Assembly: GCA_900554405.1 (NCBI GenBank)
Contig: USHI01000001.1
Location: 1 to 36,576, forward strand
Origin: an uncultured Eubacteriales bacterium
Lineage (GTDB): Bacteria > Bacillota > Clostridia > Oscillospirales > CAG-382
DNA: 36,576 nt
Reading direction: 5' to 3'
The translations under genes and the position numbers were made by a program. Of the stretch, positions 3,617 through 36,535 are shown one piece after another. Numbering within the stretch: position 1 is the stretch's first letter; every line of letters starts with the position of its first letter. A model generated the notes under the pieces. That model had not been told where the DNA came from and ran no database searches. It saw only the letters and a program-made list of their open reading frames with translations.

Positions 3617-3658
3617 TTCGGTGTTTTCCTTTCGGGTGTAGGTTTTGTTGATGTGGGC

Positions 3659-3687
3659 ATTATAACGCATAAATATGCGCATGTCAA
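3659..3687 (-). promoter_or_regulatory. Sigma-A-type promoter of the ABC transporter operon
   Basis: Minus strand reads TTGACA (3687-3682), a 17-nt spacer, then TATAAT (3664-3659), about 40 nt upstream of the ATG at 3616. The spacer contains the inverted repeat CGCAT-N4-ATGCG. Confidence 0.55.
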
Positions 3688-3852
3688 TAGGATATTTGCA
3701 AAAATATTCAACAAAAGCGGATGAATATACATTCGACTGGATGTCAAAATGCACAAAAACGCCCATATCACCGCCGTTTGGCGCTCTGCCCGGGCGGATA
3801 ATATGCGCGTTTTATGTATGAAAGTGCGTTTTATGCTGTATAATCGTGCGGA

Positions 3853-30290: not shown

Positions 30291-30758
30291 TTATTTGTCC
30301 TCTTCTTCGGATTCGTCCTCGTCGTCGGTCTGGACAAGGCTCAAAAGCTTGCCGCAGTTGGGGCATTCAAGCTCGTCGATCTCGTCTGCATCGCATTCGT
30401 CGATATAAACGGGCTTGCCGCAGGCGGGGCATTCAAGTTCCAGGCATTCGCAATCGCAATCGTCGTCATCGCAGCAGCAGTCGCAATCGTCGTCGCAGCA
30501 ATCGCAGTCGTCGTCGCAATCATCGCAGCAGTCGCAATCGCAGTAAAGCTCTTCTTCGACAGCGCCGAGATCCTCGTCAATCTCTTCGACATAATCGTTG
30601 AGCGTGGCGGTTTCGTCCTCCAGATCGAGCACGGAAAGCGAAAGGTCTTCGAGCAGATCCGCCATGGCGGAGATAACTTTGCCTTCGCCGTCGGAGGTGT
30701 CGATCTTCATGCCTTCGATAAGGCCTTTGATATAAGCGGCTTTTTCGGATACGGTCAT
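30291..30758 (-). CDS. Very acidic 155-aa protein with an N-terminal helical domain, a Cys/Asp run and a C-terminal zinc ribbon (CPACG...CPNCG); function unknown
   Basis: The ORF has AGGAG in AAGGAGTATTCTACAATG before the ATG at 30758. Conserved-looking N-terminus MTVSEKAAYIKGLIEGM. From memory it resembles clostridial proteins annotated as CD1247 N-terminal domain-containing, which I could not verify. Confidence 0.75.
   Translation of the reverse strand: MTVSEKAAYIKGLIEGMKIDTSDGEGKVISAMADLLEDLSLSVLDLEDETATLNDYVEEIDEDLGAVEEELYCDCDCCDDCDDDCDCCDDDCDCCCDDDDCDCECLELECPACGKPVYIDECDADEIDELECPNCGKLLSLVQTDDEDESEEEDK
30444..30542 (-). repeat. Low-complexity (TGY/GAY)n coding tract encoding CDCDCCDDCDDDCDCCDDDCDCCCDDDDCDCEC
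   Basis: 33 consecutive codons give 15 Cys, 17 Asp and 1 Glu. The plus strand reads as GCA/ATC/GTC triplet repeats. Confidence 0.9.
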
Positions 30759-31448: not shown

Positions 31449-32528
31449 TTAAAGCTCGATAAGCCCGCGCGGGCTTGCGGTGAGGTTTTCGCAGCCGTTT
31501 TCGGTCACGAGCACCATGTTTTCGATACGCACACCGAATTTTCCGGGGATATATATACCCGGCTCTACGGTCACAATGTTGCCGGGGACAAGTATATCGT
31601 CGCTTGCGGGGGACACACGCGGATTTTCGTGGATCTCCAACCCGAGCGAATGCCCGAGCGAATGCCCGAAGTATTCGCCGTAGCCCGCATCCGCAATGAT
31701 CTTCCGTGCAACACCGTCGGCATCCCTGCCGGAAACGCCGGCGCGGATATATTTCATCGCCTCGCTCTGCGCCTCGAGCACGGTGTTGTAGACGTGCTTC
31801 ATTTCGTCGCTTGCCTTGCCCACGACAACGGTGCGTGTCATGTCGCTGCAATATCCGTTGTATTTCGCGCCGAAATCCATTGTGAAGAAGGAATCCTTCG
31901 TGAGCCGTTCATCGCCGGGAACGCCGTGCGGAAGCGAGGATTTCTTTCCGGAAACGGCTATGGTATCGAACGCAAGCCCGGAAGCGCCGGATCTGCGCAT
32001 GAAATATTCCATTTCCGAGGCAACTTCCGCTTCCGTGCGGTCCCCGTTGATAAAGCCGCAGATATGCTCGAAGGTGAGATCGGTTATCCTCTGTGCGGCG
32101 CGGATGTTTTCGATCTCCGCTTCGGTCTTGACACGCCTGAATTCCAGAACGATATCCTCCATAAAGCCGAACTCAACGCCATCGCAGCGGCTTTGCAGCG
32201 TTTGGAGCTGCAAAACGCTCACGAGTGCAGGGTCCACGCAGACACGCTTTGCGCCGTGGGAGTAAAAATAATCGGCAATGACGGCATAGAAATTCCCTTT
32301 CAGGAGCATGGGGTGAACGTCCGCGGAAAGCTTGCCCGCCTTTTTCAGGCTGTCCGCCGCTTCGAAATAGCGCGAATCGGCAAACAGGGCGGTTTCCTCG
32401 CGGCTGACAATGACAATGTCGTCCGTCGTGTAAAAGTCGCTCAGATAATGCTGGCTCGTTTCATCCAGAAACAGCGCGCAATCGTATCCGGCGGCGCTGA
32501 TCTTTTCGTAAACCTTTCTTCCGTTCAT
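31449..32528 (-). CDS. M24-family Xaa-Pro aminopeptidase (aminopeptidase P type)
   Basis: Creatinase-like N-domain plus a pita-bread domain. The metal ligands lie in MDFGAKYNGYCSDMTRT, FGHSLGHSLGLEIHE and VTVEPGIY. Its position upstream of efp is a common synteny. Confidence 0.9.
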   Translation of the reverse strand: MNGRKVYEKISAAGYDCALFLDETSQHYLSDFYTTDDIVIVSREETALFADSRYFEAADSLKKAGKLSADVHPMLLKGNFYAVIADYFYSHGAKRVCVDPALVSVLQLQTLQSRCDGVEFGFMEDIVLEFRRVKTEAEIENIRAAQRITDLTFEHICGFINGDRTEAEVASEMEYFMRRSGASGLAFDTIAVSGKKSSLPHGVPGDERLTKDSFFTMDFGAKYNGYCSDMTRTVVVGKASDEMKHVYNTVLEAQSEAMKYIRAGVSGRDADGVARKIIADAGYGEYFGHSLGHSLGLEIHENPRVSPASDDILVPGNIVTVEPGIYIPGKFGVRIENMVLVTENGCENLTASPRGLIEL

Positions 32529-32543
32529 GGTATTTTCTCCTTT

Positions 32544-35079
32544 TTATGCTGTTACTATCCGCGCGGCATCGTGCAGCCCAAGCTGCTCCACCGCCTGCTC
32601 GCGCATTTTGTATTTGAGTATCTTTCCCGCCGCGTTCATCGGGAATTCGGTCACAAAGCTTACATAGCGCGGCGTTTTGTGCTTTGCCATATGCTCGGCG
32701 ACATAGGTTTTTATCTCGTCCTCCGTGAGCGTCATGCCGTCCTTCGGGATAACGCAGGCAAGAATTTCCTCGCCGTACTGCCTGTCCGGTACGCCGATAA
32801 CCTGAACATCCTTTACCTTCGGGTGGGTGTATATGAAATCCTCGATCTCTTTGGGATATATGTTTTCGCCTCCGCGGATGATCATATCCTTTATGCGCCC
32901 GGTGATCTTGAAATAGCCGTTTTCATCGCGCCGTGCAAGGTCGCCGGTGTGCAGCCAGCCCTCCGCATCGATGGCAAGCGCAGTCGCCTGCGGCATTTTG
33001 TAATACCCCTTCATGATATTGTATCCGCGCGCGACAAATTCGCCGTCGGTACCGTCGGGGAGCTCTTCGCCGGTTGACGGGTCCACGATTTTGCATTCCA
33101 CGCCGAACATTGCGGCACCGACAGTGTTCACGCGTGCTTCGATGCTGTCCGTCGTGCGGCTCATCGTGCAGCCGGGCGAAGCCTCCGTCTGACCGTAGGT
33201 GATGCAGATCTCGGACATATGCATTTTTTCGATAACATCCTGCATGACCTTTATCGGGCAGGGCGAGCCCGCCATGATCCCGGTGCGCATGTGCGAAAAA
33301 TCGGTTTTGGCAAAGCTTTCGTGCCCCAGCATTGCAATGAACATCGTGGGAACGCCGTGAAAGCAGGTTATCTTTTCGCGGTTGATGCAGTCCAGCGCGA
33401 TCCGCGGCGAAAAACGGCTGATCGGCGACATCGTCACCCCGTGCGTGACGGCAGCCGTCATGGCAAGCACCATGCCGAAGCAGTGGAACATCGGCACCTG
33501 TATCATCATTCGGTCGGCGCTCGAAAGATCCATGCAGTCGCCGATGTTTTTGCCGTTGTTTACGATATTGTAGTGCGTGAGCATGACACCCTTCGGGAAG
33601 CCCGTCGTGCCGGAGGTGTACTGCATATTGCAGACGTCGTGCTTGCTTATAAGCGAGCTGCGGCGGTATACCTCCTCTGCGGGGACATCGTCCGCAAGAG
33701 CAAGCGCATCCTCCCAGGTGAAGCAGCCCTCGCAGCGGCTCTGCACCGTGATAATGTTGCGCAGGAAGGGAACGCGGCGTGCGTAAAGCGGAGTTTTCGG
33801 GTCGTGTCCGGCAAGCTCGGGGCAGAGCTCGCGGATTATCGCGTTGTAATCGCTGTCCTTAAAGCCGTCGCACATGACAAGCGTGTGCGTGTCGGACTGG
33901 CGGAGCAGATATTCTATTTCATATATCTTGTAAGCCGTGTTGACGGTGACCAGCACCGCGCCGATCTTGGTCGTCGCCCAGAAGGTGATATACCATTGCG
34001 GAAGGTTTGTCGCCCATATCGCAACATGGTCGCCGCGCTTCACGCCCAGCGCGATAAGCGCACGGGCAAAACGGTCGACATCGCTGCGGAACTGCGGGTA
34101 GGTGCGGGTATAGTCGCATTCGGTAAAGCGGAAGGCGTATTGGTCGGGGAACGCCTCGCACACGCGGTCGAGAAGCTGCGGAAAGGTCAGGTCGATCAGC
34201 ATATTCTTTTGCCAGATATATCTGCCCGCGCCGCGCAGATCGGGGATAAGCGTGTCCGCTGCCGTGCGCCCGCCGAGGAATGCCGACATATAGTTTACAT
34301 AATGCGGAAACACTATGCCCGCATCCTGCAGGTCGGGAGCCCATTGCTTCACCCATTCCAGCGACAAATATCCCTCGTAATTGATGCTTTCGAGTGCGCC
34401 GATGATATCCGCAACGGGCATATCGCCTTCGCCCATCAGGCGGTATTGCACGGTTCCGTCCTCACAAACGCTGTCCTTTATGTGAACATAGGCGATATAC
34501 ATCCCGAGGTTCTGCACGGTTTTTTCGGGCGATTCGGCGCAGAAGCGGTAGGGATGGTGAACATCCCAAAGCGCCTTGACCGCATCACTTTCGGCGCGGT
34601 CGAGCAGCGCCTTCAGGCGTGCGGTATCGCTGTAAACACCGTTTGTTTCGACCAAAAGCGTTACGCCTGCTTCCTCTGCCGCCGGTATGAGCGCTTTGAG
34701 CTGCGCAAGGACTTCTTCATCGTCGACATCGTTGCCGGGGTTTATCACGTCGTCGCCGAGAACACGGACAAATCCGCAGCCGATCCTGCCTGCGGCGGCG
34801 ATGTATTCGCGGGTAAACACGGCGGTTTTCCGCCGCGCGGTCGTTATATGCAAGGCAGGCGCCGGAGGAAAAGCAGGAAACCGCGAGCCCCAGCGCGGAA
34901 AGCTTTTTCGCGGTATACATAATGTTGTCGGGCGAAAACGGGGTGACGTTTCTTCCGTCGGAAAGATCGTTGCCGAGCCCGCGGACTTCGATCCCGTCGA
35001 ACCCGAGGTCGGATGCCATTGCGCAGATATCGCCGAAGCCGTATCCGGGGCAGGCGAGCGTGGAGAAAGAGAGCTTCAT
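32544..35079 (-). pseudogene. Fusion gene of a xylose-isomerase-like TIM barrel (sugar phosphate isomerase/epimerase family) with an AMP-dependent acyl-CoA synthetase/ligase, disrupted by a 1-nt frameshift near 34826-34829
   Basis: The N-terminal 75-80 aa of the TIM barrel (MKLSFSTLACPGYGF...CFSSGACL) are in the frame of ORF 34717..35139. The rest (REYIAAAGRIGCGFVRVLGD...LSLEW) continues in ORF 32544..34853 and runs without a stop into the ligase (YTSGTTGFPKGV, GWLHTGDLARRDENGYFKITGRIKD). The total span is 3n+1 nt. Confidence 0.7.
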
Positions 35080-35098
35080 TGTGTGTGTTCCTTTGCCT

Positions 35099-35136
35099 AA
35101 AAAATAAAAATACCCGGTCAAAAGCAAAAGACCGAG
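35099..35136 (-). terminator. Intrinsic terminator at the 3' end of the leader, about 20 nt before the RBS of the TIM-barrel/ligase gene
   Basis: Minus-strand RNA reads CUCGGUC-UUUUGCUUUU-GACCGGG followed by UAUUUUUAUUUUUU. Confidence 0.65.
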
Positions 35137-35345
35137 CAAAAGGGCTTGAACCGAAAATTATCACTTGCATTGCACGCCGAACAGCGGCTCTCGTTGATAA
35201 CGGTGAGAAACCCGACCGACCCCTAAATGATTTCGGGGCGGCAGCTCCGGGGTGAGATCGCGTTGCGCAATGCTGCCGTCTTGCACCGACCGACGGCTCT
35301 CTGAAAAGCATTCTCGCAGGCTTTTTCCCCTTCATTGCTTTTTAC
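35137..35345 (-). promoter_or_regulatory. Structured GC-rich 5' leader of unknown class (riboswitch/attenuator candidate)
   Basis: It lies between a consensus promoter and a terminator. It has several hairpins, two mutually exclusive helices and duplicated 8-9-nt motifs. No convincing coding potential. Confidence 0.5.
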
Positions 35346-35352
35346 GGGATTG

Positions 35353-35381
35353 AGTATAGCGCTTTTGGCGCGCGTTGTCAA
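35353..35381 (-). promoter_or_regulatory. Sigma-A promoter driving the leader and the TIM-barrel/ligase-pepP operon
   Basis: Minus strand reads TTGACA (35381-35376), a 17-nt spacer, then TATACT (35358-35353). Confidence 0.55.
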
Positions 35382-35400
35382 GTATTTCTGCAAAAAACGC

Positions 35401-35429
35401 TTGAAAAGGCGTTTCGGCTGTGTTATAAT
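35401..35429 (+). promoter_or_regulatory. Divergent sigma-A promoter of the downstream Gfo/Idh/MocA gene
   Basis: TTGAAA (35401-35406), a 17-nt spacer, then TATAAT (35424-35429). GGAGGAAG lies before the ATG at 35468. Confidence 0.55.
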
Positions 35430-35467
35430 CCGTTCAAGGTCAGAATTTATTTACCGGAGGAAGCATC

Positions 35468-36535
35468 ATGTCCAAAATGAAGGTTGCGATCATCGGCTGC
35501 GGCTGTATCGCAAACAATGCGCATATTCCCGCCTATATGGCGAACCCCGATGTCGAGATAAAGTATTTCTGCGATATCATCAGGGAAAAGGCCGAAAAGT
35601 GTGTCGAAAAGAACAACTGCGGCACCGCTATCGAAGATTACCACATCGCTCTGAACGATCCCGAGATCGAAGCAGTTTCGGTCTGCACTCCCAACAGAAT
35701 GCACACCCAGATATCCATCGATGCTCTTAAAGCAGGCAAAAACGTGCTTTGCGAAAAGCCTGCCGCAAGAACTTATGCCGAAGCAAAGCTCATGCAGGAA
35801 GCTCAGCACGAAACCGGCAAGGTACTCAATATCGGCGTTGTCAATCGCTTCAATGCCGGCGTAAACAAGCTGCGCGAGCTTATCCAGTCCGGCGAGCTCG
35901 GCGAAATTTATCACATCTATGTCAGCTTCCGTGCTCACCGCTCCATTCCGGGGCTCGGCGGTGCCTTTACCACCAAGGAAATCGCCGGCGGCGGCGTTCT
36001 TATCGACTGGGGCGTTCACTACCTCGATATAGTCATGTACTGCATGGATGATCCCAAGCCGCTCACCGTTTCCGCAAAAGCGTTCTCCAAGCTCGGCGTG
36101 GATATGCCCAATTATGTTTACGAGGGTATGTGGTCGGAAGAAACCAAGAACGTCAACGGCACCTATGATGTCGACGACTTCGTTACCGGCTTTGTCCGCA
36201 CCGAAGGCCCCACCATTACCTTCAACGGCGCATGGGCACAGAATATCGGCGTTGCCGAAACCTATATCGACTTTATCGGTACCAAGGCGGGCGCACGTCT
36301 TCAGTACGGCAGCGATTTCACCGTTTATACCACCGCTTGCGGCGGGCTCGTTTCGCTCAAGCCCAAATTCACTGCGAACAATATGTTCCAGAACGAGATC
36401 GACAGCTTCATCCGCTGCATCCGCACCGGCGAAAAGCTTCCTTCCCATATCGACAAGGCTGTCATCACCTCCCGCATGATGCAGGCGATGTACGATTCCT
36501 CCGACGAGGGCAAGGAAATCGATCTTTCCAAATAA
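35468..36535 (+). CDS. Gfo/Idh/MocA family oxidoreductase
   Basis: MKVAIIGCGCIANNAHIPAY Rossmann start and the EKP motif (LCEKPAA). 355 aa. Confidence 0.9.
   Translation: MSKMKVAIIGCGCIANNAHIPAYMANPDVEIKYFCDIIREKAEKCVEKNNCGTAIEDYHIALNDPEIEAVSVCTPNRMHTQISIDALKAGKNVLCEKPAARTYAEAKLMQEAQHETGKVLNIGVVNRFNAGVNKLRELIQSGELGEIYHIYVSFRAHRSIPGLGGAFTTKEIAGGGVLIDWGVHYLDIVMYCMDDPKPLTVSAKAFSKLGVDMPNYVYEGMWSEETKNVNGTYDVDDFVTGFVRTEGPTITFNGAWAQNIGVAETYIDFIGTKAGARLQYGSDFTVYTTACGGLVSLKPKFTANNMFQNEIDSFIRCIRTGEKLPSHIDKAVITSRMMQAMYDSSDEGKEIDLSK

Follow-up and report, generated by a model that had tools for sequence, protein, structure and literature searches.

Leu-specific T-boxes use a CUC specifier, as in the leuS and ilv-leu leaders of Bacillus subtilis. 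In the T-boxes described so far, pairing of the discriminator with the 3' end of the tRNA is the step that reads aminoacylation. Glycine T-boxes of the glyQS type naturally have neither Stem II nor IIA/B and keep the discriminator (PMC7583486), and are a precedent for a working T-box after the loss of a whole domain. The actinobacterial translational ileS T-boxes (Sherwood et al., 2015, cited in PMC7583486) keep the UGGN-NCCA pairing, often have a shortened Stem I (PMC7583486), and use a sequestrator of the ribosome-binding site in place of the terminator, a precedent for a remodelled expression platform. A T-box class without pairing of discriminator and tRNA 3' end is described neither in the TBDB description nor in the 2020 review (PMC7583486), and our search of the wider literature, incomplete in its coverage, found no description of discriminator-less T-boxes.

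The leader analysed here lies on the minus strand of a DNA stretch of 36,576 nucleotides (the window). Stem I, Stem II, and Stem IIA/B are present in the window and its nearest relatives, and UGGNACC was not found upstream of the gene; we refer to such leaders as variant leaders. The window leader resembles the transcriptional T-box of family RF00230 in its K-turn, Stem I, CUC specifier with the following purine, AG bulge, distal-loop T-loops, Stem II, and IIA/B with the F-box, as well as in its layout from promoter to terminator and its position ahead of an amino-acid-linked gene, the canonical form being found on orthologous genes. It differs in lacking Stem III, the A1/A2 antiterminator, and the UGGN bulge, in scoring 70 against a gathering score of 93, and in having a large terminator loop of 10 nt that is complementary to the 5' tail. 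The relation to the glyQS type is reversed, as the window leader keeps Stem II and IIA/B and loses the discriminator; compared with the ileS type, it has a full-length Stem I, keeps the terminator, and misses the acceptor contact. We consider the leader to be, with a probability of about 95%, a T-box-derived Leu leader without a discriminator. That it is still a tRNA-responsive attenuator, with an expression platform either rewired or decaying, is a sequence-based reading for which we see the odds as evenly balanced.

The Leu T-box domain of the leader

The leader consists of about 265 nt of non-coding sequence on the minus strand between promoter and ATG (the strand was read over 34900-35700), with the following features.

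35353-35381, minus strand: sigma-70-type promoter, TTGACA (35381-35376), 17 nt, TATACT (35358-35353), an 11/12 match
35244-35345, minus strand: T-box Stem I with single-stranded 5' tail (RF00230 alignment; covariation in the variant clade)
35335-35342, minus strand: 5' tail/K-turn strand AAAAGCAA, candidate long-range partner of the terminator loop (complementarity)
35338-35327 with 35252-35244, minus strand: K-turn, GC/AAUGAA/GGGG with CCCC/GGA/GC (RF00230 alignment)
35302-35297, minus strand: AG bulge AGAGAG (RF00230 alignment)
35291-35281, minus strand: distal loop GGUCGGUGCAA, closed by the distal Stem I helix GCCGUC/GACGGC (RF00230 alignment)
35254-35256, minus strand: specifier CUC, a Leu codon, within the loop GAU-CUC-A; the purine after it, A35253, is conserved (RF00230 alignment; relatives)
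35215-35243, minus strand: T-box Stem II, UGCCGCCCC ... GGGGUCGGU (RF00230; 4 of 7 pairs changed on both sides in the variant clade)
35189-35214, minus strand: Stem IIA/B, CGG-GUUUCUCA-CCG, with the F-box CCGUUA and GAGA at 35192-35189 (RF00230 alignment)
35176-35188, minus strand: extra hairpin H, GCCG-CUGUU-CGGC, found also in canonical orthologues between IIA/B and Stem III
35141-35166, minus strand: degenerate remnant of Stem III and T-box sequence, AAGUGAUAAUUUUCGGUUCAAGCCC, without UGGN and without A1 or A2 helices (alignment of relatives)
35099-35136, minus strand: intrinsic terminator, CUCGGUC (35136-35130), loop UUUUGCUUUU (35129-35120), GACCGGG (35119-35113), and UAUUUUUAUUUUUU (35112-35099) (sequence; relatives)
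35120-35127, minus strand: terminator-loop segment UUGCUUUU, complementary to 35342-35335 over 8 bp
35094-35089 and 35079-35077, minus strand: ribosome-binding site AAAGGA and start codon ATG
32544-35079, minus strand: predicted target of the leader, a gene fusing a xylose-isomerase-like TIM barrel to an AMP-dependent acyl-CoA ligase (homology)

An earlier sequence-only reading of this DNA had described the promoter, the leader of about 265 nt, the ATG at 35079, and the hairpin CUCGGUC-N10-GACCGGG with its U-run, as well as two short repeats (CCGACCGAC at 35212 and 35286; CGGCTCTC at 35185 and 35294), and all of these lie exactly where it had placed them. The layout it recognised, with a structured leader close behind the promoter and an intrinsic terminator at its end, is indeed that of a transcription attenuator. 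The promoter implies a transcription start at about 35346-35343, some 7 nt past TATACT, and in relatives equivalent TTGACA-N17-TATAAT boxes precede the leader by the same distance. On the plus strand, at 35401-35429, TTGAAA-17-TATAAT with an extended -10 TG forms a divergent promoter-like site upstream of a Gfo/Idh/MocA oxidoreductase gene (35468-36535); several relatives (6 of 12 variant loci) share this arrangement of genes.

At gathering thresholds, Rfam gave zero matches in the window. In a permissive scan with E-value reporting, however, the T-box model RF00230 matched the leader at 35344-35181 with 70.2 bits (E 2.6e-15), below its gathering score of 93. This was the sole Rfam match with E below 0.01 across the 36.6-kb window; Guanidine-I, anti-hemB, and other families had E above 1 and were set aside as chance matches. 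The Rfam scan had been proposed as a check on novelty, and what it recovered was a known family below its gathering score. The alignment takes in the K-turn, Stem I, the CUC (Leu) specifier, Stem II, and Stem IIA/B, and within Stem I the K-turn with its GA motif, the specifier loop with its purine, the AG bulge (AGAGA), and a UGxRA-type distal loop were aligned at high posterior probability. The GAGA at 35192-35189 can pair with the loop sequence UCUC in a predicted IIB pseudoknot, and CGGGUUUCUCACCGUUAUCA, in the Stem IIA/B region, is nearly invariant across variant and canonical leaders. The 5' 155-165 nt or so of the leader are therefore the Stem I, Stem II, and IIA/B domain of a T-box. No tRNA genes were found in the window.

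These results change how the leader is to be classified. What had been called an unclassified leader is, over its 5' ~165 nt, a Leu T-box domain, and orthologous genes carry canonical T-boxes. The remark that it matches no T-box core was right as far as the conserved T-box sequence goes, which is absent, and failed for Stem I, Stem II, IIA/B, and the CUC specifier, which match RF00230 at 70.2 bits. The GC hairpins and repeats pointed out in the sequence-only reading are present, but are parts of the T-box: GCCGUC/GACGGC is the distal Stem I helix, and of the two copies of the repeat GAGAGCCG, the first forms the AG bulge with the distal helix and the second the IIB 'GAGA' with the next hairpin. 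The alternative pairing CGGCAGC/GCUGCCG, by contrast, would link the 3' strand of Stem I with the 5' strand of Stem II and lies outside the T-box consensus supported by covariation. The folding energy (MFE) of the whole leader was no better than that of shuffled sequences (z = 0.04) and is uninformative, so that the support for the structure rests on homology and covariation.

Orthologous leaders and the missing discriminator

The comparison drew on 160 orthologous TIM-barrel/ligase loci, collected from genomic and metagenomic sequences, with a protein identity of 69-82% and almost all from Clostridia MAGs. Stem I and UGGNACC were both present upstream in about 65 of the 160, and of the 14 orthologous loci scanned with Rfam, 5 carried a full T-box that scored 98-117 bits and thereby exceeded the gathering score. 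Canonical Leu T-boxes occupy the same upstream position in orthologues of 70-79% identity and carry the CUC specifier and AGAGUGGUACCGCGG; in the alignments of L029, L023, and L039, CUC goes together with AGAGUGGUACC[G/A]CGG. An approximate parse of 67 canonical leaders gave CUC as the specifier for at least 48 of them and CUG for 5. UGGU fits the A73 discriminator base of tRNA-Leu. As canonical Leu T-boxes occur across the orthologues, a Leu T-box ahead of the TIM-barrel/ligase gene is the ancestral and widespread state.

The window leader departs from this state downstream of its 5' domain. In its RF00230 alignment, the model positions of Stem III and of the T-box sequence are deleted, and it lacks the T-box sequence, made up of the A1 and A2 helices and a bulge of 7 nt in which UGGN contacts the 3' NCCA of the tRNA by base pairing. 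The triplet UGG does not occur in the 248-nt leader, against about 5 occurrences expected from composition. From 25 orthologues we derived a covariance model (R1) that covers the canonical discriminator together with the terminator. It matched each of 9 canonical test loci with scores of 36-80 bits, L025 (CGGUACC) and L102 (UGGUAAC) among them, and gave no match at E up to 10 in the window and 16 variant loci; with filters off, its best score over 35000-35450 was 4.9 bits. What is left of the acceptor motif differs between lineages: it reads CGGU in the window, UGGU in L164, UGAU in L001, L162, L165, and L168, and AGGU in L007, UGGA is also found among the variant leaders, and in L095 it is deleted. 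With the canonical discriminator absent, the leader cannot read aminoacylation in the canonical way. A single-base change is seen in L025 at about 3626-3689, where an otherwise canonical Leu T-box, matched by R1 at 36 bits, has CGGUACC in place of UGGUACC, such that the base pairing with A76 of the tRNA is altered.

Neighbour-joining analysis of the TIM-barrel/ligase proteins placed the 20 variant leaders together in one 23-leaf clade, a small lineage of gut Clostridia, that holds no canonical T-box and is nested among canonical ones, and in its remaining three leaves (L014, L081, and L118) the leader is absent. A single variant clade suggests that the discriminator was lost once, in an ancestor, after which the proteins diverged by up to about 29% and three members went on to lose the whole leader. 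From positional orthology and the nesting of the variant clade, we infer that the window leader descends from a canonical T-box. L081, the closest protein relative (82%), has a bare promoter, and in L173 the IIA/B region is degenerate. L014 has lost Stem I, Stem II, and IIA/B and keeps, some 130 nt ahead of its gene start at 3737, a promoter followed by a terminator-like hairpin and U7, ACCGGCUCUGUUUAUGCU...GACCCGGCUUUUUUU, that resembles the variant terminator and apparently stands in the 5' UTR without a sensor.

The covariation check on the upstream regions of orthologues, suggested along with the original description, came out in favour of a conserved structure. In the 5' domain of the variant clade (15 distinct leaders), 92% of the cells are paired and 19 of 30 pairs have changed on both sides, a result reached by none of 500 shuffles, and sliding the alignment out of register left only 38-57% paired. 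The CUC specifier, AGAGAG, and GGUG are invariant in these 15 leaders, and CUC is present too in the aligned canonical orthologues; the loops and linkers of the variant clade, on the other hand, are too diverged for alignment. Judging from these patterns of sequence change, the 5' domain of the variant clade is still under selection, and the tRNA-binding half and the terminator are under purifying selection.

Terminator, tail-loop complementarity, and competing explanations

The terminator is placed to stop transcription about 20 nt ahead of the ribosome-binding site of the TIM-barrel/ligase gene. A simple terminator scan missed it because the loop limit of the scan is 8 nt and the actual loop has 10 nt. 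A hairpin with a U-run is kept in every variant relative, with arms that differ by lineage (CUCGGUC/GACCGGG, GCUCUGUC/GACAGAGC, GGCUCUGUCGG/CCGAUAGGGUU, CCGGUCUUUACC/GGUAAAGACCGG, and GCCGCUUUGCU/AGCAAAGCGGC), and the 3' platform as a whole differs strongly among the variant sub-lineages. The retention of a terminator in the 5' UTR together with the tRNA-binding domain argues for continued regulation. Nonetheless, the canonical antiterminator is absent, and we found no convincing antiterminator conserved across the variant clade.

The best candidate for an alternative pairing lies between the 5' tail and the terminator loop. In 15 curated variants, anchored on a GC::GC core, the mean contiguous tail-loop helix was 6.9 bp, compared with 2.4 +/- 0.5 bp for shuffled loops (0 of 1000), and when the whole region beyond the F-box was scanned for duplexes without bias, the terminator loop came out as the best target of the 5' tail in 10 of 16 leaders. 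Canonical orthologues showed no such excess (5.19 bp vs. 5.09 bp shuffled, with a larger target). The partners change by lineage: AAAAGCA::UGCUUUU, GAAAUGCG::CGCAUUUC in L085, AUCUUAAAUGC::GCAUUUGAGGU in L083, GCAUGGA::UCCAUGC/UCUGUGC/UCUAUGC in L007, L008, and L011, and AAAAGCG::CGUUUUU in L173, while in L171 GCAGAG::CUCUGC pairs the tail with the 5' arm of the terminator. In a hand-registered alignment, pairing amounted to 70.3% (shuffles: 67.5%, with 12 of 500 attaining the observed value), the covariation score was 0.149 (shuffles: 0.103, with 5 of 500 attaining the observed value), and 5 pairs had changed on both sides (31 of 500 shuffles). Four leaders, L168, L172, L171, and L082, either lack the helix or have it in a shifted position. 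Given this modest formal covariation and the gaps in some leaders, we regard the tail-loop match as a supported, recurrent complementarity and not as a proven helix; as an alternative to the terminator in variant leaders, it is only suggestive.

Several other pairings and mechanisms were tried and rejected. Pairing of IIA/B with the conserved GAUAAUAUUGAUUUACCC ('P-alt'), proposed by RNAalifold from eight close relatives, had a duplex energy z of about -0.8 against shuffled sequences, and it stays unproven, since canonical leaders score equally and no pair has changed on both sides. Pairing of the IIB AGAG and the 5' arm of H with NN+GCUCU at the 5' arm of the terminator ('AT') is not general across the variant leaders: in L164, L165, and L166 it spans 8 bp and includes one exchange of C-G for U-A, and in the window, L001, and L168 it spans 3-4 bp. 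Relocation of the acceptor site to the H loop was discarded as well; UGG is enriched at the 3' side of this loop (11 of 16 variants vs. 5 of 53 canonical leaders), but it is absent in the window and partly buried in the stem. As for leader-peptide attenuation, Leu-rich frames cross the terminator in some relatives, with start codon and Shine-Dalgarno sequence unconserved. The CUUUUGC that could sequester the Shine-Dalgarno sequence is complementary to the ribosome-binding site GCAAAGG in the window and not in relatives.

By homology and conserved structure, the 5' ~155 nt of the leader fold into the standard tRNA-binding domain of a T-box, with K-turn, Stem I, the platform of AG bulge and distal loop, Stem II, and the predicted IIA/B pseudoknot. 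If the leader still responds to tRNA, the CUC specifier would read tRNA-Leu with the anticodon GAG, which is expected to bind the conserved 5' domain still, and the intrinsic terminator would stop transcription about 20 nt before the ribosome-binding site. Binding of tRNA-Leu would tip the balance between the terminator and another pairing specific to the clade, the best candidate being the tail/K-turn strand 35342-35335 with the terminator loop 35127-35120. Any distinction in vivo between charged and uncharged tRNA might come only from EF-Tu holding the charged form. The tail-loop helix uses the GC of the K-turn C-stem and should compete with the T-box fold; taken naively, this competition means that tRNA binding would favour termination, the opposite of the canonical orthologues, so that the polarity of such a switch might be inverted. 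A functional T-box derivative of exactly this kind, so far undescribed as a class, without NCCA sensing and with tRNA-Leu at Stem I, the K-turn, and Stem II coupled to termination via the tail-loop helix, seems to us rather unlikely in its particulars. It would be blind to charging and would respond to the occupancy of free tRNA-Leu, not to the aminoacyl group.

Against continued regulation stands the possibility that the leader is an eroding relic, in which an ancestral deletion or mutation destroyed the discriminator and left a constitutive, leaky terminator without regulation while the T-box parts are being lost. The lineage-dependent remnants of the acceptor motif, with the deletion in L095, would fit such decay, as would the three clade members without a leader, L014 with nothing but its terminator-like hairpin, L173 without a recognisable IIA/B, the plain promoter of L081, and the frameshift of the TIM-barrel/ligase gene in the window; the divergence of the 3' platform among sub-lineages fits erosion as well as rewiring. 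These signs of erosion in the variant clade keep the hypothesis alive, and we see it as possible, if on the unlikely side. It has to contend with pairing in Stem I and Stem II that survived, through two-sided changes in 19 of 30 pairs, a protein divergence of up to ~29%, with a specifier codon and both T-loop motifs that are invariant while the flanking linkers and loops cannot be aligned, with a hairpin and U-run that persist in every lineage despite differing arms, and with an intact allele of the gene at 99% identity. Variant leaders that still regulate would represent a second way of coupling transcription to the binding of tRNA; variant leaders that no longer regulate would provide a dated, stepwise record of the decay of a riboswitch, losing the discriminator, then IIA/B, then the whole leader.

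Two further readings keep the leader functional on other terms. Canonical function could persist through a cryptic acceptor contact, the NCCA of uncharged tRNA-Leu pairing with a non-consensus site and stabilising an unrecognised antiterminator. Candidate sites would be CGGU at 35153-35150, since L025 has CGGUACC within a canonical architecture and yet reaches 36 bits with R1, or the 3' side of the H-hairpin loop with its enrichment in UGG among variants. The window, however, has no UGG and its H loop is CUGUU, the CGGU is not flanked by A1/A2-like helices, the candidate sites are unconserved across the clade, and the H-loop counts are not phylogenetically independent, with most triplets lying partly in the stem; we consider such a contact very unlikely. 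That the leader is instead a new kind of riboswitch for a small molecule, or a new protein-binding leader, with no relation to known classes, might be suggested by the lack of any Rfam family at gathering score and of any known match for the 3' 80 nt. Yet its 5' two-thirds are unambiguously T-box and orthologous to canonical T-boxes, and its 3' part is, unlike a ligand pocket, unconserved across sub-lineages. The T-box 5' domain and the canonical orthologues effectively refute a novel class, and what we retain is a T-box-derived Leu leader without a discriminator. Variant leaders of this kind, falling below the Rfam T-box threshold, will be missed or mis-flagged as novel riboswitches.

The predicted target gene and its neighbours

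In the window, the fusion gene is frameshifted by one extra C at about 34824-34825 (34824-34830, minus strand, gaaaaCC), whereas the 99.3% identical contig L161 encodes an intact allele with a protein of 844 aa (P0001); the frameshift is either a strain-specific pseudogene or an assembly error. The best NCBIfam match of the ~845 aa fusion is PRK12583, below cutoff. A Leu (CUC) T-box precedes this gene in many gut and rumen Clostridia, which implies a leucine-linked role for the protein and provides a functional lead for a widespread, uncharacterised TIM-barrel/acyl-CoA-ligase fusion. One idea is that it may activate isovalerate for reductive carboxylation to leucine. Our literature search, with incomplete coverage, found nothing on the fusion protein or on its gene as a T-box target.

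The sequence-only reading placed the leader upstream of a TIM-barrel/ligase-pepP operon. In the window, pepP (31449-32528) lies 15 nt downstream of the ligase gene, an adjacency found in 7 of 18 variant loci, all close relatives of the window, and in 0 of 53 canonical loci. Being limited to these close relatives, the ligase-pepP operon is a recent juxtaposition outside the conserved T-box regulon, and it is the TIM-barrel/ligase gene that forms the leader's conserved target. Farther along the minus strand, at 30291-30758, a conserved protein of 150-155 aa is encoded beside efp, and is found also in L161 (7321-7788) and L170 (455-907). It has no Pfam match and carries two CPxCG motifs and an extreme Cys/Asp run, CDCDCCDDCDDDCDCCDDDCDCCCDDDDCDCEC.
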